A stretch of 64,000 nucleotides of DNA, taken from assembly GCF_000026545.1 (NCBI RefSeq), contig NC_011601.1; one strand, 5' to 3'. Below, one piece after another: positions 4,569 through 61,420 of this stretch. The notes below the pieces were generated by a model, which was given only the letters and a program-made list of their open reading frames with translations, did no database searches and was not told where the DNA came from. The stretch is from Escherichia coli O127:H6 str. E2348/69 (GTDB taxonomy: Bacteria; Pseudomonadota; Gammaproteobacteria; Enterobacterales; Enterobacteriaceae). Both the position numbers and the translations under genes were made by a program. Numbering within the stretch: position 1 is the stretch's first letter; every line of letters starts with the position of its first letter.

Positions 4569-6500
4569 ATGAGTTATCAGGTCTTAGCCCGAAAATGGCG
4601 CCCACAAACCTTTGCTGACGTCGTCGGCCAGGAACATGTGCTGACCGCACTGGCGAACGGCTTGTCGTTAGGGCGTATTCATCATGCTTATCTTTTTTCC
4701 GGCACCCGTGGCGTCGGAAAAACCTCTATCGCCCGACTGTTGGCGAAGGGGCTAAACTGCGAAACCGGCATTACCGCGACGCCGTGCGGCGTGTGCGATA
4801 ACTGTCGTGAAATCGAGCAGGGGCGCTTTGTCGATCTGATTGAAATCGACGCCGCCTCGCGCACTAAAGTCGAAGATACCCGCGACCTGCTGGATAACGT
4901 TCAGTACGCTCCGGCGCGTGGTCGTTTCAAAGTTTATCTCATCGACGAAGTGCATATGCTGTCGCGTCACAGCTTTAACGCACTGTTAAAAACCCTTGAA
5001 GAGCCGCCAGAGCACGTTAAGTTTTTGCTGGCGACGACCGATCCGCAGAAATTGCCGGTGACGATTTTGTCACGCTGTCTGCAATTTCATCTCAAGGCGC
5101 TGGATGTCGAGCAAATTCGCCATCAGCTTGAGCACATCCTCAACGAAGAACATATCGCTCACGAGCCGCGGGCGCTGCAATTGTTGGCACGCGCCGCTGA
5201 AGGCAGCCTGCGAGATGCCTTAAGTCTGACCGACCAGGCGATTGCCAGCGGTGACGGCCAGGTTTCAACCCAGGCGGTCAGTGCGATGCTGGGTACGCTT
5301 GACGACGATCAGGCGTTATCGCTGGTTGAAGCGATGGTCGAGGCCAACGGCGAGCGCGTAATGGCGCTAATTAATGAAGCTGCTGCCCGTGGTATCGAGT
5401 GGGAAGCGTTGCTGGTGGAAATGCTCGGTCTGTTGCATCGTATTGCGATGGTACAACTTTCGCCTGCTGCTCTTGGCAACGACATGGCCGCCATTGAGCT
5501 GCGGATGCGTGAACTGGCGCGCACCATACCGCCGACGGATATTCAGCTTTACTATCAGACGCTGTTGATTGGTCGCAAAGAATTACCGTATGCGCCAGAC
5601 CGCCGTATGGGTGTTGAGATGACGCTGCTGCGCGCGCTGGCGTTCCATCCGCGTATGCCTCTGCCTGAGCCAGAAGTGCCACGCCAGTCCTTTGCGCCCG
5701 TTGCGCCAACGGCAGTAATGACGCCAACACAGGTGCCGCCGCAACCGCAATCAGCGCTGCAGCAGGCACCGACTGTACCGCTCCCGGAAACCACCAGCCA
5801 GGTGCTGGCGGCGCGCCAGCAGTTGCAGCGCGTGCAGGGAGCAACCAAAGCAAAAAAGAGTGAACCGGCAGCCGCTACCCGCGCGCGGCCGGTGAATAAC
5901 GCTGCGCTGGAAAGACTGGCTTCGGTCACCGATCGCGTTCAGGCGCGCCCGGTGCCATCGGCGCTGGAAAAAGCGCCAGCCAAAAAAGAAGCGTATCGCT
6001 GGAAGGCGACCACTCCAGTGATGCAGCAAAAAGAAGTGGTCGCCACGCCGAAGGCGCTGAAAAAAGCGCTGGAACATGAAAAAACGCCGGAACTGGCGGC
6101 GAAGCTGGCGGCAGAAGCCATTGAGCGCGACCCGTGGGCGGCTCAGGTGAGTCAACTTTCGCTACCAAAACTGGTCGAACAGGTGGCGTTAAATGCCTGG
6201 AAAGAGGAGAGCGACAACGCAGTATGTCTGCATTTGCGCTCCTCTCAGCGGCATTTGAACAACCGCGGCGCACAGCAAAAACTGGCTGAAGCGTTGAGCA
6301 CGTTAAAAGGTTCAACGGTTGAACTGACTATCGTTGAAGATGATAATCCCGCGGTGCGTACGCCGCTGGAATGGCGTCAGGCGATATACGAAGAAAAACT
6401 TGCGCAGGCGCGCGAGTCCATTATTGCGGATAATAATATTCAGACCCTGCGTCGATTCTTCGATGCGGAGCTGGATGAAGAAAGTATCCGCCCCATTTGA
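4569..6500 (+). CDS. dnaX: DNA polymerase III tau subunit (643 aa); gamma subunit made by -1 frameshift
   Basis: ORF track; AAA+ Walker A GTRGVGKT; slippery A AAA AAG at about 5852-5858 followed by a stem-loop. Confidence 0.95.
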   Translation: MSYQVLARKWRPQTFADVVGQEHVLTALANGLSLGRIHHAYLFSGTRGVGKTSIARLLAKGLNCETGITATPCGVCDNCREIEQGRFVDLIEIDAASRTKVEDTRDLLDNVQYAPARGRFKVYLIDEVHMLSRHSFNALLKTLEEPPEHVKFLLATTDPQKLPVTILSRCLQFHLKALDVEQIRHQLEHILNEEHIAHEPRALQLLARAAEGSLRDALSLTDQAIASGDGQVSTQAVSAMLGTLDDDQALSLVEAMVEANGERVMALINEAAARGIEWEALLVEMLGLLHRIAMVQLSPAALGNDMAAIELRMRELARTIPPTDIQLYYQTLLIGRKELPYAPDRRMGVEMTLLRALAFHPRMPLPEPEVPRQSFAPVAPTAVMTPTQVPPQPQSALQQAPTVPLPETTSQVLAARQQLQRVQGATKAKKSEPAAATRARPVNNAALERLASVTDRVQARPVPSALEKAPAKKEAYRWKATTPVMQQKEVVATPKALKKALEHEKTPELAAKLAAEAIERDPWAAQVSQLSLPKLVEQVALNAWKEESDNAVCLHLRSSQRHLNNRGAQQKLAEALSTLKGSTVELTIVEDDNPAVRTPLEWRQAIYEEKLAQARESIIADNNIQTLRRFFDAELDEESIRPI

Positions 6501-6881: not shown

Positions 6882-6882
<1 letters not shown>

Positions 6883-7487
6883 TGCAAACCAGCCCGCTGT
6901 TAACACAGCTTATGGAAGCACTGCGCTGTCTGCCGGGCGTTGGCCCGAAGTCGGCGCAGCGTATGGCGTTCACGCTGCTTCAGCGCGATCGTAGCGGCGG
7001 GATGCGTCTGGCGCAGGCGCTCACCCGGGCGATGTCGGAAATCGGCCACTGCGCCGATTGCCGCACCTTCACCGAACAGGAAGTCTGTAACATCTGTTCG
7101 AATCCACGTCGTCAGGAAAACGGTCAAATCTGCGTGGTGGAGAGTCCGGCGGACATTTACGCCATTGAGCAGACGGGGCAGTTTTCAGGTCGTTATTTTG
7201 TGTTGATGGGGCATCTGTCACCGCTGGACGGCATCGGTCCTGATGATATCGGGCTTGATCGTCTGGAACAGCGTCTGGCAGAGGAAAAAATCACTGAAGT
7301 GATCCTCGCCACCAACCCCACGGTTGAAGGTGAAGCTACCGCTAACTACATTGCCGAGCTTTGTGCGCAATATGACGTGGAAGCCAGCCGAATCGCTCAT
7401 GGCGTACCGGTTGGCGGCGAACTGGAAATGGTCGATGGCACCACGCTGTCACACTCCCTTGCCGGGCGTCATAAGATTCGTTTTTAA
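6882..7487 (+). CDS. recR: Recombination protein RecR, 201 aa
   Basis: ORF track; C4 zinc finger [16 protein letters not shown] and Toprim region; start overlaps ybaB stop. Confidence 0.95.
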
Positions 7488-7516
7488 GCAAACGAGAGCA
7501 GGATCACCTGCTCTCG

Positions 7517-7545
7517 CTTGAAATTACTCTCCCTTGTCCCCATCT
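7517..7545 (+). promoter_or_regulatory. Sigma-32 heat-shock promoter of htpG
   Basis: CTTGAAA, about 14 bp spacer, CCCCATCT, matching the sigma-32 -35/-10 consensus upstream of htpG. Confidence 0.7.
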
Positions 7546-7596
7546 CTCCCTCATCCTGTTTTTAACCTTAAAATGGCATTATTGAGGTAGACCTAC

Positions 7597-9471
7597 ATGA
7601 AAGGACAAGAAACACGTGGTTTTCAGTCAGAAGTGAAACAGCTTCTGCACCTGATGATCCATTCTCTCTATTCCAATAAAGAAATCTTCCTGCGTGAGCT
7701 TATCTCTAACGCCTCCGATGCGGCGGACAAGCTGCGTTTCCGCGCGCTTTCTAACCCGGACCTGTACGAAGGTGATGGTGAACTACGCGTTCGTGTCTCT
7801 TTCGATAAAGACAAGCGCACGCTGACCATCTCCGATAACGGCGTGGGGATGACCCGCGACGAAGTGATTGACCATCTGGGGACTATCGCTAAATCCGGCA
7901 CCAAATCATTCCTCGAATCCCTGGGTTCTGACCAGGCGAAAGACAGCCAGCTGATCGGTCAGTTTGGTGTTGGTTTCTACTCTGCGTTTATCGTGGCTGA
8001 CAAAGTGACCGTGCGTACTCGCGCGGCAGGCGAAAAACCAGAAAACGGCGTCTTCTGGGAATCGGCTGGCGAAGGTGAATACACCGTTGCCGACATCACT
8101 AAAGAAGATCGTGGTACTGAAATCACCCTGCATCTGCGTGAAGGCGAAGACGAGTTCCTCGATGACTGGCGTGTGCGTTCCATCATCAGCAAATATTCCG
8201 ACCATATCGCGCTGCCGGTAGAGATCGAAAAACGCGAAGAGAAAGACGGCGAAACCATTATCTCCTGGGAGAAAATCAACAAAGCGCAGGCGCTGTGGAC
8301 TCGTAACAAGTCGGAAATCACCGATGAAGAGTACAAAGAGTTCTACAAACACATCGCCCACGACTTTAACGATCCGCTGACCTGGAGCCACAACCGCGTT
8401 GAAGGTAAGCAGGAGTACACCAGCCTGCTGTACATTCCGTCTCAGGCACCGTGGGATATGTGGAACCGCGATCATAAACACGGTCTGAAACTGTATGTTC
8501 AGCGTGTGTTCATCATGGACGACGCAGAACAGTTCATGCCGAACTATCTGCGCTTCGTGCGTGGTCTGATTGACTCCAGCGATCTGCCGCTGAACGTTTC
8601 CCGTGAAATCCTCCAGGACAGCACGGTAACGCGTAACCTGCGCAATGCGCTGACCAAGCGTGTGCTGCAAATGCTGGAAAAACTGGCGAAAGACGACGCG
8701 GAAAAATACCAGACCTTCTGGCAACAGTTTGGCCTGGTACTGAAAGAAGGTCCGGCGGAAGATTTCGCTAACCAGGAAGCGATCGCCAAACTGCTGCGTT
8801 TTGCTTCTACCCATACCGATTCTTCTGCGCAGACCGTGTCTCTGGAAGACTACGTTTCCCGCATGAAAGAAGGGCAGGAGAAAATCTACTATATCACCGC
8901 AGACAGCTACGCGGCAGCGAAGAGCAGCCCGCACCTGGAACTGCTGCGTAAGAAAGGCATCGAAGTTCTGCTGCTTTCCGACCGCATCGATGAGTGGATG
9001 ATGAACTATCTGACTGAGTTCGACGGTAAACCGTTCCAGTCTGTGTCTAAAGTTGACGAGTCGCTGGAAAAACTGGCTGACGAAGTTGATGAGAGCGCGA
9101 AAGAAGCGGAGAAAGCACTGACTCCGTTCATCGACCGTGTGAAAGCTCTGCTCGGCGAGCGCGTGAAAGATGTCCGTCTGACTCACCGTCTGACCGATAC
9201 GCCAGCGATCGTTTCGACCGACGCGGACGAAATGAGCACTCAGATGGCGAAACTGTTCGCTGCGGCGGGCCAGAAAGTGCCAGAAGTGAAATACATCTTC
9301 GAACTGAACCCGGATCACGTACTGGTGAAACGTGCGGCGGATACTGAAGATGAAGCGAAGTTCAGCGAGTGGGTAGAACTGCTGCTGGATCAGGCGCTGC
9401 TGGCAGAACGCGGCACGCTGGAAGATCCGAACCTGTTTATTCGTCGTATGAACCAGCTGCTGGTTTCTTGA
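7597..9471 (+). CDS. htpG: Chaperone HtpG (Hsp90), 624 aa
   Basis: ORF track; GHKL ATPase N-terminal motifs ([18 protein letters not shown]). Confidence 0.95.
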
Positions 9472-13809: not shown

Positions 13810-13925
13810 TCGGTTCGTAGGCCAGATAAGGCGTTCACGCCGCATCTGGCATTTTGCTTTCAATGCCTGATGCGACGCTGGCGCGTCTTATCAGGCCTAC
13901 ATATCCGCGCCTATTATCCGGCAAC
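13810..13925. repeat. REP/BIME elements between gsk and ybaL
   Basis: taggccagataaggcgttcacgccgcatctggca and gcctgatgcgacgctggcgcgtcttatcaggcctac. Confidence 0.7.
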
Positions 13926-19573: not shown

Positions 19574-19656
19574 ACACCGTCGCTTAAAGTGACGGCATAA
19601 TAATAAAAATATGAAATTCCTCTTTGACGGGCCAATAGCGATATTGGCCATTTTTT
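19574..19656 (+). ncRNA. chiX: ChiX (MicM/SroB) Hfq-dependent small RNA
   Basis: acaccgtcgcttaaagtgacggcataataataaaaatatgaaattcctctttgacgggccaatagcgatattggccattttttt in the ybaK-ybaP intergenic region, ending in a hairpin plus T-run; matches ChiX as I recall it; coordinates approximate. Confidence 0.65.
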
Positions 19657-20450
19657 TAGCGCAACATCTGCGGCAAATTCCCTTCTCCATACAGATGTAA
19701 AGCACCGACCGCGACCACATAGCGCCCCGGCGGCATGTCGCGTAATTTGTCCCGCCAGGCGAGATTTCGCTGATGCATCAGCACATCGTACAGCGACTGA
19801 CTGAATGTATTGGGCAGCGTTATTTCATTATTTTGCGGCGGCGCATTCAGCCACCAGCCCATCATTTGTTGCAGCAACCGTGCATTGGTGTGCCAGTGGG
19901 TCAGCGTATCGTCCAGCAGCGCCAGTCCTTTGTCAGGGAGCTGGAGCAACATGGCAATCTGTTTTTCTGCGCCTTCCAGTTCAATTACAGGTTTATGTTG
20001 TTGCTTCGCCGCCTGCAATAGCTGGTAATCGATACCATATTCTGCCCGCAGCCCCAGTTTTTGCGCCTGCGTCGCCTGAAGAACCATCGCGATTTGCCAC
20101 AACGGTTGAGTAGAAAAGAGTGACGGAGAAATGCCCATCTCCTGGCTAATGTGCTGCAGGTTTTGGAGTTGCTCCTCGCTAATGCGCTCTTCCAGTGCCT
20201 CGCAGGCAGGCAAATTGGCAAAAGGCGTATCGCTGGTGGAAACATCCGCCTCGACGATCAGCGCATCGGCGTTTTTGAGCTTTTTGAGCAAACGGGTGGG
20301 CAGGGGAGCCATATCGTGGCTACCCATATGAATACTGCCGATCAGATGAAAATGGCGATTGCCGGGAAGAGAGATATCGATAGCAGGCCAGGTGTAATGA
20401 TTACCGCGCAGCGCGGCCCAAAGCGTTTTTACCCGGTACAACAGATCCAT
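19656..20450 (-). CDS. ybaP: TraB/GumN-family protein YbaP, 264 aa
   Basis: ORF track; conserved position. Confidence 0.8.
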   Translation of the reverse strand: MDLLYRVKTLWAALRGNHYTWPAIDISLPGNRHFHLIGSIHMGSHDMAPLPTRLLKKLKNADALIVEADVSTSDTPFANLPACEALEERISEEQLQNLQHISQEMGISPSLFSTQPLWQIAMVLQATQAQKLGLRAEYGIDYQLLQAAKQQHKPVIELEGAEKQIAMLLQLPDKGLALLDDTLTHWHTNARLLQQMMGWWLNAPPQNNEITLPNTFSQSLYDVLMHQRNLAWRDKLRDMPPGRYVVAVGALHLYGEGNLPQMLR

Positions 20451-26521: not shown

Positions 26522-27252
26522 TTAAGGCTTGCGAAAATAGTCGTCCATTATTTTCGTCAGCTCCGGACGTTCCCCGTCATCATTGATGGCAAAATCCAGA
26601 AAAAAAGCATCTGCTTGCGGCGTTCGGTTTTGCGCCATCAACCGGAAGGTGAGGGGGCCTGACCAGGTTTCGGATGGGCTGATGTGCTTATCAGGGCCGA
26701 AACTCTCCCATGCGTTGGGCGGTAATGTTTTGCACGCGGTGAGTTTTGGTATGTGGTATTGCAGCTCTGTTTTGTGCAGACATTCCCCGCCAGGAAATAC
26801 CAGGGTTTGTTGCTCATCATTAAAATGGGTTGCCGTGCTGAGCACCAGTGTTTTGAGCGGTCGCCCTTCCAGCGCGGCGGCAGTAGCCTTATGGTGTCCG
26901 TCGAGCAGAACGCAGAGATAGGAATCAGGGAGATACCAGGCCAGAGCGCGGGCGATTCCAGTTTTCGAGAGCAGACAAAAACCGGGCGGCTCCCTGTTCA
27001 TCCTCCGCAAAACCGCTGTAGACAAATTCCGCACAGGTAGGGCAATCAGCCTCGGACCAGAAACGTATTAACGGGACATCCTTGCCAGCAGAGCGAATGG
27101 ATAAGACCGTGCGAGTGCGGATCGTAAATCACACATTGACGCAGAAATCCTTTCCCGGACTTCACCGAAAAAATGACGCCCGCAGCGGTATTTTTCAGCA
27201 GACGTACTTCAGGTTTTCGAAAGGGGAAAAAGCATGGCCACTCCTTAGCCAA
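26522..27252 (-). pseudogene. Hypothetical accessory gene of about 240 codons, split by an apparent frameshift near 27046-27068
   Basis: Two adjacent minus-strand ORFs (27046..27252 and 26522..27034) in different frames; the downstream frame stays open up to 27067; no family confidently recognised; stop abuts cueR stop. Confidence 0.45.
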
Positions 27253-27323
27253 AATTTCAGTTCCCTGAACTGTGCCAGAAAATTACGCTGGTGACTATTG
27301 CTCTGGAAATGGAAACGGTGTCC

Positions 27324-27530
27324 TTACCCATTAATCCCCGTTTGCACCGAAAGAATATGCTGCAAACTTTCTACCATTATGCGCCCCGACTGAAATAAGC
27401 CTTCCTGGATTTCGTTGTTAACATTCACAGCGTGAACCAGGGAGGCTAATAACACCACTTGCAAGAAGGCAAAAATAAACGCACCGATAATCATAATATG
27501 CGTCAGGGGGATTTTCCTTTGCTCCTTCAT
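27324..27530 (-). CDS. Small single-pass membrane protein (68 aa), hypothetical
   Basis: ORF track; one hydrophobic helix IIGAFIFAFLQVVLLASLV; start overlaps the stop of the upstream lipoprotein gene by 4 bp. Confidence 0.5.
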   Translation of the reverse strand: MKEQRKIPLTHIMIIGAFIFAFLQVVLLASLVHAVNVNNEIQEGLFQSGRIMVESLQHILSVQTGING

Positions 27531-27949
27531 TTTAAATAACCCACAAACTGGCCTTCTTTCATTAAGGCGACTTTTCCTGTGTGATGATAAACAATGACAT
27601 TATACAGACCCGACTGATAAACAGTAGCATCTTTATTGTCTTCATCAATTACACATAATGAATCATTGAGATAAGCAAAGTTCTTACTGCTCATTCTAAA
27701 GGTCATGCCAAATCCTTTATAAATGGCTTTCTTTGCCGCCTGGGCATGTTGTGCGGCTTCTGCATTTTTAAATGCCTGCGCCTCGGATGCACTTAAAATA
27801 GCCGTCTGACGCTGTTGTTCTGCGAGGTAACAGGTGTCATGGCTGACGCCCTGCGCCTGGCAATCTGCGATGCGGGAAGTGGGTGAACTACAGCCAGCCA
27901 GTAATATAACCGCCAGCAGGGAAAACGATTTAATGGAGCTATTCATCAT
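27527..27949 (-). CDS. Predicted lipoprotein (140 aa), hypothetical
   Basis: ORF track; signal peptide with lipobox LLAGC followed by S at +2; not a K-12 core protein I recognise. Confidence 0.6.
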   Translation of the reverse strand: MMNSSIKSFSLLAVILLAGCSSPTSRIADCQAQGVSHDTCYLAEQQRQTAILSASEAQAFKNAEAAQHAQAAKKAIYKGFGMTFRMSSKNFAYLNDSLCVIDEDNKDATVYQSGLYNVIVYHHTGKVALMKEGQFVGYLK

Positions 27950-28002
27950 TGTTAACCTTAAATAATGTGCGGAAAATTGCGAATAAGAAATTGCTGTTAA
28001 AA

Positions 28003-29019
28003 TTAGAACGAATATCCCACGCCGACACCCGCACCGAAATCAGATTGTGTATCCGCAGAAATACCTGCTTTAAGTACCGTATGCGTTCCGGCATTAAAAG
28101 ATGTTCCGACAGACACCGCAGATTCACCGTTAAAGGTTCCCGCTCCCGCTGAGACCATCATCAAGTCACCGGTTTTCACCTGTGGTTGTGAGGCGATAGC
28201 GATGGCAGATGCAGTTCCCGCATTGGCTTCTTTACGATTGTCCTCAACTTCGTTTTTTAGCGAACTGAAATGGTTATTGAGCGTGTTAATTTGCTGGCTG
28301 TTATCTGCAACCCGTTTTTGGGTGTTGGTTAACTGTTGCTGCGTTTGTGCGGAATCTTGTCTCAGACTTTCAATTTGCTCATGTGCCTGGACAGACTTCT
28401 GCGCCAGACTTTGCATTTGTTTATCGTATTGAGCCCTTTCTTTTTGCTGTTGTGCTGCCACATCGGTTGTCAGTGCATTCATTTTCTGCCCTTGTTCCGT
28501 GGTAGTGCGCTGATTAGCCTCATTTTGAGCCGCCAGCCTGGCATTAATCATCTCCTGATAATGCGCGGTATTTTGCGTATCTCCAGTCGCGGCGAGCGTT
28601 TTTTGTGTGGCTACGATCTGCGCCTGTTGCTCTGTAATTTGCGTTTGCTGGGCATCAGTTACCGTAGACTGTCGGGCGTTGATCATGCTCTGATAACGGG
28701 CGGTTGTCTGTACATCACCTGTAGCGGCAACGGTTTTTTGTCCTGCGTCAGGATCTGTCTGGACAGGGGGAGTCTGAGTGGTATCAGGTGTTTCAGAAGG
28801 GATGTAGTGATGTTCAGTCAAATAGGTATATGCAGCGGGGCTGTTGTCGGTGCGTTCTAAAAAGCGGGTAATCTTCTGCTCAATCTCCGATTGCGACATG
28901 CCCGAGTTAATGGCTGAAAGCTCTGTTGCCGCCGCTTCAATGGTATCACCAGCTAAAACAAAAGGGCTGGATGTTGCTGAAATTATGAGTGCCAGTAAAG
29001 CTACGTTTACAGTTTTCAT
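28003..29019 (-). CDS. Short trimeric-autotransporter-like protein with YadA-type C-terminal membrane anchor (338 aa)
   Basis: ORF track; N-terminal signal peptide, Q/T/A-rich coiled-coil repeats, C-terminus ...GESAVSVGTSFNAG...GAGVGVGYSF resembling the YadA anchor and ending in an aromatic residue. Confidence 0.7.
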   Translation of the reverse strand: MKTVNVALLALIISATSSPFVLAGDTIEAAATELSAINSGMSQSEIEQKITRFLERTDNSPAAYTYLTEHHYIPSETPDTTQTPPVQTDPDAGQKTVAATGDVQTTARYQSMINARQSTVTDAQQTQITEQQAQIVATQKTLAATGDTQNTAHYQEMINARLAAQNEANQRTTTEQGQKMNALTTDVAAQQQKERAQYDKQMQSLAQKSVQAHEQIESLRQDSAQTQQQLTNTQKRVADNSQQINTLNNHFSSLKNEVEDNRKEANAGTASAIAIASQPQVKTGDLMMVSAGAGTFNGESAVSVGTSFNAGTHTVLKAGISADTQSDFGAGVGVGYSF

Positions 29020-29386
29020 TCATTTTCTCTCGATCAAAATAAGTTGCATTAATGTTTCTATAAGAAACAAATAATATTGTTATTAAGAAATAAAATACGT
29101 TGCAATATGATCGAAATCTACGCCGCCATTTGTGTGATGTAAAGCGCATTTTTGTCTGTTGTAAGCGTAAATATCACCAATAAGAAACAAAAAATGTTTC
29201 TTTTATAAATTAAAAAGGAAAACATTTCGTGCTCTTTCAATGTAAAAAAGAGTAAAGACTTGTTTTGATAAGCGAAATAAATTCTGTTTCTGGACTAAAC
29301 GTGAACCGGTTCCTGATGTGTGCTAAAATGCGTTTCTTTGATAAATCTCAATTTTTAAGAGGTTTACGCCAGGCAGGAACATTTAA

Positions 29387-29749
29387 ATGAATGAATTTGA
29401 GAAGATTTTTAATGAAATGAATCTGGACCGGGCATTGCTACCGATCCTTTTTCGTTCGAACCGGTCAACAGTGTGGAAGTATTTAAGCGGCGATAGTACG
29501 GCTCCTGCCTCAGCTATGTCACTGATTATGCTGTTGCAGTTAATCCAGAAACGAAACCCCGATCTATTAGCCGAATGGTTAACGCTTTCTGATTTCACCA
29601 TTCCGCCAGAAGTTTACCTGGACCAGCCTGATTACTGGAAAGGGTGGGTGTATACCCAACACAAGGTCAATAAAAACGTCCTGGAATATCTAAAAAAACA
29701 TTATCCGGATGAAGACCAAAAAAGTATGGGTAAAGGCCGGGAAGAGTAA
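29387..29749 (+). CDS. Putative HTH DNA-binding regulator (120 aa), hypothetical
   Basis: ORF track; HTH-like segment RSNRSTVWKYLSGDSTAP; divergent from the autotransporter-like gene across a 370-bp AT-rich region. Confidence 0.45.
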   Translation: MNEFEKIFNEMNLDRALLPILFRSNRSTVWKYLSGDSTAPASAMSLIMLLQLIQKRNPDLLAEWLTLSDFTIPPEVYLDQPDYWKGWVYTQHKVNKNVLEYLKKHYPDEDQKSMGKGREE

Positions 29750-32875: not shown

Positions 32876-33772
<897 letters not shown>

Positions 33773-33790
33773 TTAAGCGCGCGCTTCAAC

Positions 33791-38289: not shown

Positions 38290-38400
<111 letters not shown>

Positions 38401-38498
38401 CAGTGTGCATTTTGGCAATAAATATGAAACCAACTGTCATGTCGGTTTTTTTAAAGGCCGAAGGTGGTAAACCTTCGGCCTTAGCTACGTTTCCTCAG

Positions 38499-38582
38499 TT
38501 ATTCAATAAATTGACGGATCAGTTCTAGCAGCGCGATTAGCGCCTTAAGAACGATGAGAACTTTATCGAGAAAAGTTTTCAT
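38499..38582 (-). CDS. Putative 27-aa amphipathic micro-protein (MKTFLDKVLIVLKALIALLELIRQFIE)
   Basis: Hand-translated; AAGGGAG Shine-Dalgarno 6 nt upstream of the ATG; followed downstream by a perfect 10-bp-stem hairpin (about 38456-38480). Confidence 0.35.
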   Translation of the reverse strand: MKTFLDKVLIVLKALIALLELIRQFIE

Positions 38583-38656
38583 CCGTTGCTCCCTTAAGGG
38601 AGAAAGACAATCACAGCTTACCCTTACGTTGCCTGTAACTATGATTTTCTTCATGT

Positions 38657-39958
38657 GCTAGATGAGGACTGCCTCTCTCCAAATTAGAGCACCAGAATCA
38701 GCACCACCTGTATCCTGACCAGGACTTAAAAGTACTTTTCCGCACTGCGGTAATCCCTTGAGGCAGTATCACTACTAGCGTCGGGATTGTATCGCCAACA
38801 TAGCTGTTGTGTAAGTTCACAGAGATATTGCAATTGCCTCCGGATAAGTAAGGGGAGATTGCACTATGCAAATGCAGCATCTGATGGTTGGCTATCCTAA
38901 GTACTACCAAACGGCCGATTATGCGTTGAGGCTTTCAGTGATGGCTGATATAGCAACAATGAGAATGAAGGCTCTGCACTTCTGGGATAAACACGGTATT
39001 TCTGCAGCTTCTGAAGCCTTTGGCGTGTCCTGCCGCACGCTTTACTGGTGGCGTCAGTTACTGAACAAGGAAGGACCTGAGGGGCTAATCCCGCACAGTA
39101 AGGCACCTCTGGTGCGACGAAAAAAACACTGGCATCCCGATGTGCTGAAAGAGATTCGACGCCTCAGGACAGAGCTGCCGAACCTCGGTAAAGAGCAGAT
39201 TTTTGTTCGCCTGAAGCCCTGGTGCGAACAGCGCTATCTGGCCTGTCCGAGTGTTTCCACCATCGGCAGAATGATCGCTGCCGCACATGATAAAATGCGG
39301 ATGATACCTGTGCGTCTGGGATCGCGGGGGAAGGCACTGCTTGTCAAAAAGCGGTCTGCCAAACCCCGCAGGCCAAAGCACTACCGCCCGGTAAAGACAG
39401 GTGAGCTCATTGGGATGGACGCCATTGAGCTCAGAATGGGCGAACTGCGTCGCTATGTCATCACCATGATCGACGAATGCAGCAATTACGCGCTGGCGCT
39501 GGCTGTGCCGTCACTCAACAGTGATATCGTCAATCACTTCTTCAGCCGCGCAGCCCGGTTGTTCCCGGTCGGTATCAGCCAGATAATCACAGATAACGGA
39601 AAAGAGTTCCTGGGAAACTTCGACAAAACGCTGCAGGAAGCCGCTATCAAACACCTCTGGACCTATCCCTACACGCCAAAAATGAACGCTATCTGTGAAC
39701 GTTTTAACCGGACGTTAAGAGAGCAGTTTATTGAATTTAATGAGATTTTACTCTTTGAAGATCTGGCGCTATTTAACCAGAAGCTGGCGGAATATCTGGT
39801 GCTGTATAACAGCAAAAGACCCCACAAGGCGCTCGCACTAATGACGCCCGTGGAATATATTTTAAAAGAGAATAAAAATTGCAATATGTGGTGGACCCAT
39901 ACAGCTGTTTGAATATGTAGGCATCCTGACTTATAATTCACTTGCTAGATGAGGACTG
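38657..39958 (+). mobile_element. Putative insertion sequence carrying one DDE transposase gene (IS481-like architecture); ends uncertain
   Basis: Transposase ORF bracketed by a 16-bp direct repeat tgctagatgaggactg at about 38657-38672 and 39943-39958; occupies the position where K-12 has the rhsD element. Confidence 0.45.
38866..39912 (+). CDS. DDE transposase, N-terminal HTH plus integrase-core (rve) domain, 348 aa
   Basis: ORF track; catalytic D (GMDAIE), D (ITDNGKEF) and E (ICERFNRT) with 35-residue D-to-E spacing. Confidence 0.7.
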   Translation: MQMQHLMVGYPKYYQTADYALRLSVMADIATMRMKALHFWDKHGISAASEAFGVSCRTLYWWRQLLNKEGPEGLIPHSKAPLVRRKKHWHPDVLKEIRRLRTELPNLGKEQIFVRLKPWCEQRYLACPSVSTIGRMIAAAHDKMRMIPVRLGSRGKALLVKKRSAKPRRPKHYRPVKTGELIGMDAIELRMGELRRYVITMIDECSNYALALAVPSLNSDIVNHFFSRAARLFPVGISQIITDNGKEFLGNFDKTLQEAAIKHLWTYPYTPKMNAICERFNRTLREQFIEFNEILLFEDLALFNQKLAEYLVLYNSKRPHKALALMTPVEYILKENKNCNMWWTHTAV

Positions 39959-40094
39959 TTTCATTTCTGCCCGGAACCACCAAGTCTTGGGCGGAAAAAA
40001 TAAAAAAACCGACTGTCATGTCGGTTTTTTTATATCTGTATTCTGGTGCAACCATTCTGTTCTCACGACAATCGCCGTTTCAGAATACCGCCCA

Positions 40095-52996: not shown

Positions 52997-53124
52997 CTAT
53001 TACCTTTAAAGCGGATGCGATTTATATCGCATCTTTTTTTACCTGAATTGACTACAAAAAAAGCCACGGAATAAACCGTGGCAAAATCCAACATAGCTAA
53101 AAATAATCAGGCGAGTGGTATGAC

Positions 53125-61214: not shown

Positions 61215-61420
61215 TGGCACATCTAGCCTGATGCGATGCTGGCGCGTCTTATCAGGTCTACAGGCGGTGTCGGAACGGTAGGCCGGATAAGGCGTTCACG
61301 CCGCATCCGGCAATCGGCACACCATGCCTGATGCGATGCTGGCGCATCTTATCAGGCCTACAGTCGGTGTTGGAACGGTAGGCCTGATAAGGCGTTCACG
61401 CCGCATGCGGCAAGAAAATG
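61215..61420. repeat. Tandem BIME: two roughly 100-bp units, each a REP pair
   Basis: gcctgatgcgatgctggcgcgtcttatcagg...taggccggataaggcgttcacgccgcatccggca repeated almost exactly. Confidence 0.8.

Follow-up and report, generated by a model that had tools for sequence, protein, structure and literature searches.

The present analysis assigns the site upstream of htpG in Escherichia coli O127:H6 str. E2348/69 to htpG P1, and it is almost certainly the sigma-32 (RpoH) heat-shock promoter of that gene. The promoter is already known as a textbook sigma-32 promoter, described here as its E2348/69 allele, and it is said to have been among those from which Cowing et al. derived the sigma-32 consensus in 1985. 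All of the features that define a sigma-32 promoter at the level of sequence are present in this DNA, and those that define it in vivo are present in K-12 according to published data. The start-site, ChIP and reporter evidence comes entirely from K-12 and not from the EPEC strain of the window (the whole stretch of 64,000 nucleotides that was analyzed), and from it we infer the same start site and the same sigma-32 dependence in E2348/69.

From the recR stop codon (TAA, 7485-7487) to the htpG ATG (7597), the plus strand reads gcaaaCGAGAGCAGGatcaCCTGCTCTCGCTTGAAAttactctcccttgtCCCCATCTctccctcAtcctgtttttaaccttaaaatggcattattGAGGtagacctacATG, and the promoter segment within it reads ...gctctcgCTTGAAAttactctcccttgtCCCCATCTctccctcAtcc... 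The -35 element, CTTGAAA, with its core TTGAAA at 7518-7523, matches the consensus at seven of seven positions, and the -10 element, CCCCATCT, matches all seven specified positions of CCCCATNT. A sequence-only reading of this DNA had proposed that these two elements, about 14 bp apart, fit the sigma-32 consensus; both elements are confirmed and the spacer is exactly 14 nt, or 15 nt if counted from CTTGAA rather than CTTGAAA, which is inside the quoted N13-17 range. The interval that it had given, 7510-7596, encloses both elements, which lie 51 nt upstream of the htpG ATG, and ends one base before that codon. Two forms of the consensus are quoted in open papers, one being CTTGAA-N13-17-CCCCATNT and another TNtCNCcCTTGAA at -35 with CCCCATtTa at -10; by manual count, the upstream extension of the htpG -35 element fits nine of the 11 specified positions of the extended form. 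Gene order around the promoter is apt-dnaX-ybaB-recR-htpG-adk-hemH. The region is 100% identical to E2348/69, and the first 50 kb of the window correspond without mismatch to positions 448001-498000 of an E2348/69 record (NZ_LT827011.1). A 301-nt query spanning the promoter matched 5,424 of the 5,426 complete genomes of E. coli, once in each and always at 95% identity or more. Coordinates are collected in Table 1.

Table 1. Features of the recR-htpG boundary, in window coordinates.
Feature	Position	Strand	Source
recR CDS, upstream gene	6882..7487	+	ORF list; RefSeq annotation of E2348/69
recR 3' hairpin	7493..7516	+	RNA fold, Enterobacterales comparison, covariation
recR mRNA primary 3' end, K-12 equivalent, within -35 element	7519	+	Term-seq
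htpG -35 element CTTGAAA	7517..7523	+	motif scan; same in K-12
14-nt spacer TTACTCTCCCTTGT, one SNP vs K-12 (C7527 vs T)	7524..7537	+	K-12 alignment
htpG -10 element CCCCATCT	7538..7545	+	motif scan; same in K-12
htpG transcription start +1 (A), inferred from K-12	7553	+	Cho 2014, Cappable-seq
44-nt htpG 5' untranslated leader	7553..7596	+	sequence
htpG CDS, Hsp90-family chaperone, 624 aa	7597..9471	+	ORF list; RefSeq annotation

Two independent genome-wide maps agree on the dominant htpG start in K-12. RACE-seq with 5'-triphosphate enrichment placed it at U00096.2 494300 on the plus strand with 29 reads (Cho 2014, PMC3923258), and Cappable-seq placed a start at the same position with an RRS of 125.2 and a log2 enrichment of 4.2 (Ettwiller 2016, PMC4782308), by far the strongest from ybaB (493189, 10.3) to adk (496357, 105.7). 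The 51-mer tabulated for this start, ATCACCTGCTCTCGCTTGAAATTATTCTCCCTTGTCCCCATCTCTCCCACA, ends in ...CCCCATCTCTCCCACA, and the table header identifies the final base as the start (Cho 2014, PMC3923258). Located in the K-12 locus, the 51-mer equates 494300 with NC_000913.3 495076 and with A7553 of the window, the coordinates being transferred through the htpG ATG, which lies at NC_000913.3 495120 and at window position 7597. A7553 is 7 nt beyond T7545, with which the -10 element ends, and precedes the ATG by 44 nt. Comparison with a mapped start was the check named by the sequence-only reading, and because A7553 falls 7 nt after the -10 element, the usual distance for the sigma-70 family, the K-12 start is compatible with both proposed elements. 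As to the sigma factor, the network table of Cho 2014 (PMC3923258), based on ChIP-chip, gives sigma-32 ('H') as the sole sigma factor occupying each of the four htpG starts, and ChIP-exo in K-12 found one predominant RpoH site at htpG, compared with several at dnaK. Strain CAG45146, which carries an htpG P1-lacZ fusion, serves as a sigma-32 reporter (Hayden and Ades 2008), and overexpression of ptsN lowered envelope-stress reporters while leaving the htpG sigma-32 reporter unaffected. Thus the start maps, ChIP and reporter use in K-12 all support the original assignment of a sigma-32 promoter to this position.

The conditions under which the start was detected bear on an alternative explanation. 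In the table of Cho 2014 (PMC3923258), the single condition code given for the 494300 start is S, which we read as stationary phase, and the start is absent under the heat-shock code H; in Cappable-seq (PMC4782308) it was strong in unstressed minimal-medium cells. The alternative is a dual or overlapping promoter at which sigma-70 holoenzyme would give most of the unstressed transcription and sigma-32 would only add heat induction, and both the RRS of 125 in unstressed cells and the code S in place of H would be consistent with it. Overlap between sigma-32 and sigma-70 promoter use, reportedly described by Wade in 2006, was also counted in its favor. The unstressed signal shows basal htpG activity but does not prove sigma-32 dependence; it fits the known basal expression of htpG, and basal sigma-32 activity at 37 C would be enough to produce it. 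No sigma-70-like promoter (TTGACA/TATAAT-like hexamers 16-18 nt apart) was found on either strand of 7300-7800, and CCCCATCT shares just the A and one T of TATAAT. Moreover, ChIP-chip gives sigma-32 alone, with no sigma-70, at the four htpG starts, and the promoter serves as a specific sigma-32 reporter that did not respond to the ptsN overexpression that lowered the envelope-stress reporters. Dual use of this kind therefore appears unlikely, though sigma-70 might account for a minor share of transcription, and a promoter driven by sigma-32 is the preferred reading.

Some weak additional 5' ends have been given to htpG in K-12; three correspond to leader positions 7571, 7581 and 7589, and three lie inside recR, at the equivalents of 7071, 7085 and 7293. 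In Cappable-seq their signal is at least 12-fold below that of 7553 (RRS 3.2 and 10.1), or else they have single-digit read counts, with 4-14 reads in Cho and Kim. A mismatch-tolerant scan of the window found no sigma-32-like site of 11/14 or better before any of the six, and with one predominant RpoH site by ChIP-exo, additional sigma-32 promoters for these ends were rejected. For the 7589 end, TGgCATTAT (7574-7582) could serve as a weak extended -10 element. Klebsiella pneumoniae has a start, supported by 3 reads, 2 nt ahead of the htpG ATG.

The 3' end of recR carries a hairpin immediately before the -35 element, with a 10-bp G+C-rich stem (7493-7502 paired with 7507-7516) and a loop at 7503-7506 (ATCA). 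In the minimum-energy fold an outer stem is added, in which UUUUAAGC (7482-7489, including the recR stop codon) pairs with GCUUGAAA (7516-7523, the -35 element), and the hairpin including this outer stem has a predicted energy of -22.6 kcal/mol (z = -5.9; none of 200 shuffles was as stable). Of 117 Enterobacterales loci listed, 70 had a similar hairpin that stops at the -35 element, and these were mainly from Enterobacteriaceae and Erwiniaceae; it was mostly missing among the loci listed from Yersinia, Serratia, Photorhabdus and relatives (most Yersiniaceae and Morganellaceae). RNAalifold predicted no structure when given all 62 hairpin-bearing sequences, because two stem registers were mixed, the stems of the Pantoea-type hairpin taking in the C of CTTGAAA; pairs were therefore counted on the 28 sequences in the same register alone. 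In these, 95.7% of cells were paired, compared with 41-55% when the partner was slid by 1 to 3 columns, a percentage inflated by the preselection of the 28 sequences for folding. Compensatory changes, which remain informative in a fixed register, occurred in nine of the ten pairs, and none of 500 shuffles reached the observed value.

Term-seq in K-12 reported a 'primary' recR 3' end at NC_000913.3 495042 (Adams 2021, PMC7815308). This corresponds to window position 7519, 3 nt past the stem and within CTTGAAA, and therefore the upstream transcript ends within the htpG -35 element. Term-seq alone cannot tell termination at this point from trimming back to a protective hairpin. There is no U-run directly after the stem, where the tail reads CUUGAAAUUACUC, and the terminator scan called no canonical terminator on either strand of 7300-7800. 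The hairpin thus has the G+C-rich stem and the mapped 3' end of a canonical intrinsic terminator and lacks one defining feature, the U-run.

A second alternative is that read-through from the dnaX-ybaB-recR operon is the main source of htpG mRNA, the consensus match being conserved but minor. The lack of a U-run and of a terminator call could be taken as support for this, as could the low-count starts inside recR that have been assigned to htpG. Rather, the primary recR 3' end by Term-seq is at the 7519 equivalent, directly past the hairpin; the 5' end at 7553 was enriched (log2 4.2) by a method specific for 5' triphosphates; its signal is more than 10 times that of any neighboring start, including ybaB (RRS 10.3); and the transcription unit tables keep ybaB-recR apart from htpG. 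Read-through as the main source is highly improbable on these data. A separate question is whether the hairpin is functionally coupled to the htpG promoter rather than merely packed against its -35 element. The inverted repeat might, for instance, insulate htpG and hold it strictly under sigma-32 control, or access of sigma-32 to the -35 element might be modulated by transcription from upstream or by DNA or RNA structure that forms at the repeat in a temperature-dependent way. We regard coupling of either sort as quite improbable.

Within the window the match to the consensus is singular. Counting both strands of its 64 kb (128 kb of strand), there is a single instance of CTTGAAA-N12-16-CCCCATNT, and there was none in 100 dinucleotide-preserving shuffles. 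When mismatches were tolerated, the htpG site was the sole 14/14 match, followed by one 12/14 and eleven 11/14 sites, and simulating the window 100 times with a first-order Markov model never gave 14/14, the maximum being 13, in 14 of the 100. A chance origin of the htpG motif match is excluded.

Conservation was assessed at htpG loci picked by degenerate back-translation of the first 14 htpG codons, one genome per species, a procedure blind to the promoter. This gave at least 120 Enterobacterales loci, and 118 of those listed had enough upstream sequence; the loci listed span Enterobacteriaceae, Erwiniaceae, Pectobacteriaceae, Yersiniaceae, Hafniaceae and Morganellaceae together with several endosymbionts. 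Within the 220 nt preceding the ATG, the highest-scoring match was 14/14 at 72 of the 118 loci listed, 13/14 at 34, 12/14 at ten and 11/14 at two, so that 106 of 118 had at least 13/14, while in shuffled upstream regions (2,380 trials) 13/14 was reached in 0.04% and 12/14 or more in 0.4%. Spacer length was 13 or 14 nt at all 118 loci listed, with a sequence that drifts and carries almost no information. TTGAA was invariant in 119 sequences (the 118 loci listed and the window) and CCCCA was nearly so. Because the loci were anchored on their best match, information values at both elements are too high; the unbiased measure is how the scores are distributed relative to the shuffled null. A second, small peak of conservation with the consensus CTCA is found at the start site, and its A aligns with A7553. 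One lineage, including Cedecea, Enterobacter sp. Ag1, Klebsiella sp. BIGb0407 and relatives (five loci), has CTTGAAA-N13-TACCATAT before htpG, in which the first two C residues of the -10 element, near-invariant elsewhere, are replaced. The probability that the site resembles a promoter by chance and does not function as one is close to nil. Nothing favors this reading beyond the general point that short consensus matches can arise by chance, and it is opposed by the absence of matches in shuffles, by a mapped start at the expected distance, and by elements conserved over seven Enterobacterales families while the spacer drifts.

The window and K-12 MG1655 differ at three positions in 151 nt around the promoter, two of them in the promoter region (7527 and 7551), and both of these SNPs fall outside the -35 and -10 elements, which are the same in the two strains. 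At 7527, in the unconserved spacer, the window has C and K-12 has T. The base at 7551 (position -2) is T in the window, in line with the Enterobacterales consensus for the conserved CTCA start motif, and A, the derived state, in K-12. It is possible that T7551 could move the start by one or two bases, though T is the consensus in Enterobacterales. In uropathogenic E. coli SA186 (NZ_CP022730.1; 3129-4229 of locus L124), ISApl1, an IS30-like element, is inserted after the equivalent of window position 7567, at +15 of the htpG leader, and parts the sigma-32 promoter and start site from the htpG ribosome-binding site and CDS.

The leader itself carries a Shine-Dalgarno sequence, GAGG, at 7584-7587, 9 nt before the htpG ATG. 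No significant structure was found in the leader (7553-7596; z = +1.1, with 176 of 200 shuffles folding at least as well), and no Rfam family reached gathering score over the promoter region, where matches with E up to 1 gave only a chance-level hit. An RNA thermometer (ROSE, fourU and similar) in the leader was considered and is unsupported, there being no significant fold and no Rfam family. Minus-strand ORFs at the locus are short and overlap recR or htpG, and the ORF list suggests no minus-strand feature at the promoter.

The abundance and activity of sigma-32 are set by the thermosensor of the rpoH mRNA and by feedback that depends on DnaK/J, GroEL/S, SRP and FtsH, and the contacts of sigma-32 regions with -35 and -10 elements are taken from established knowledge of the sigma-70 family. 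On this background, sigma-32 RNA polymerase would recognize TTGAAA (7518-7523, with the preceding C7517) and CCCCATCT (7538-7545) across the 14-nt spacer, and the holoenzyme would open the DNA and initiate at A7553. The resulting htpG mRNA would have an unstructured 44-nt leader and would be translated from GAGG-N9-AUG. Output of htpG would be expected to track the level and activity of sigma-32, being basal at 37 C and rising on heat shock or protein misfolding. The dnaX-ybaB-recR transcript would end at the conserved hairpin, the 3' side of which adjoins the -35 element, and with the upstream transcript ending there htpG would constitute its own transcription unit.

Elsewhere in the window, the second-best sigma-32-like site (12/14) is a candidate promoter of cnoX (ybbN, chaperedoxin), GTTGAAG-N13-CCCCATGT, on the minus strand at 33790..33763. 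The candidate sits directly past the ybbO stop codon, with the cnoX ATG (33730) 32 nt downstream, and is the same in K-12. ChIP-chip reported sigma-32 binding for a ybbN start (Cho 2014, PMC3923258); a start at the place expected for the candidate was not found in that table, where the ybbN starts are at other positions. The window also holds a strain-specific gene block between cueR and ybbJ (26522-29749), containing a frameshifted hypothetical gene, two small hypotheticals, a protein with a YadA C-terminal domain (trimeric autotransporter-like) and another hypothetical; cueR and ybbJ are presumably adjacent in K-12. Between ybbP and mnmH (38319-40033), a dinQ-like type I toxin gene (38499-38654) and Rfam matches to ES036 (38319-38361, minus strand) and AgrB antisense RNA (39945-40033) flank an IS481-family transposase (38866-39912). 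Other Rfam matches at gathering score, at 5833-5897, 13820-13897, 19574-19657, 53052-53118 and 61281-61358, belong to the DnaX frameshift element, naRNA4 (two matches, REP-derived), sroB/ChiX and STnc480.

The htpG P1 call has value only as a calibration point. The site had been put forward as a positive control for reading promoters in this window, and that use is valid: the by-eye promoter call holds at single-base level and is in accord with published data on start sites, ChIP and reporters. The cross-species footprint, in which Enterobacterales keep both elements and let the spacer vary, and the end of the recR transcript overlapping the htpG -35 element, a tidy textbook case of compact gene boundaries, are not new biology.

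Compared with its K-12 counterpart, the promoter in the window shares both elements, the 14-nt spacer, the distance to the ATG, the recR hairpin and the recR-htpG-adk order, is identical at 49 of 51 bases up to the start site, and differs by C7527 in place of T and T7551 in place of A, in an EPEC O127:H6 background. The cnoX candidate fits the sigma-32 consensus less well than htpG P1 and is known from its motif alone. With dnaK P1, groE and the general sigma-32 consensus (CTTGAA-N13-17-CCCCATNT), htpG P1 shares the architecture of two elements and a spacer within the range, while dnaK has several RpoH sites and htpG one that predominates. A further difference from these promoters is that the htpG -35 element overlaps the transcript end of the upstream gene.
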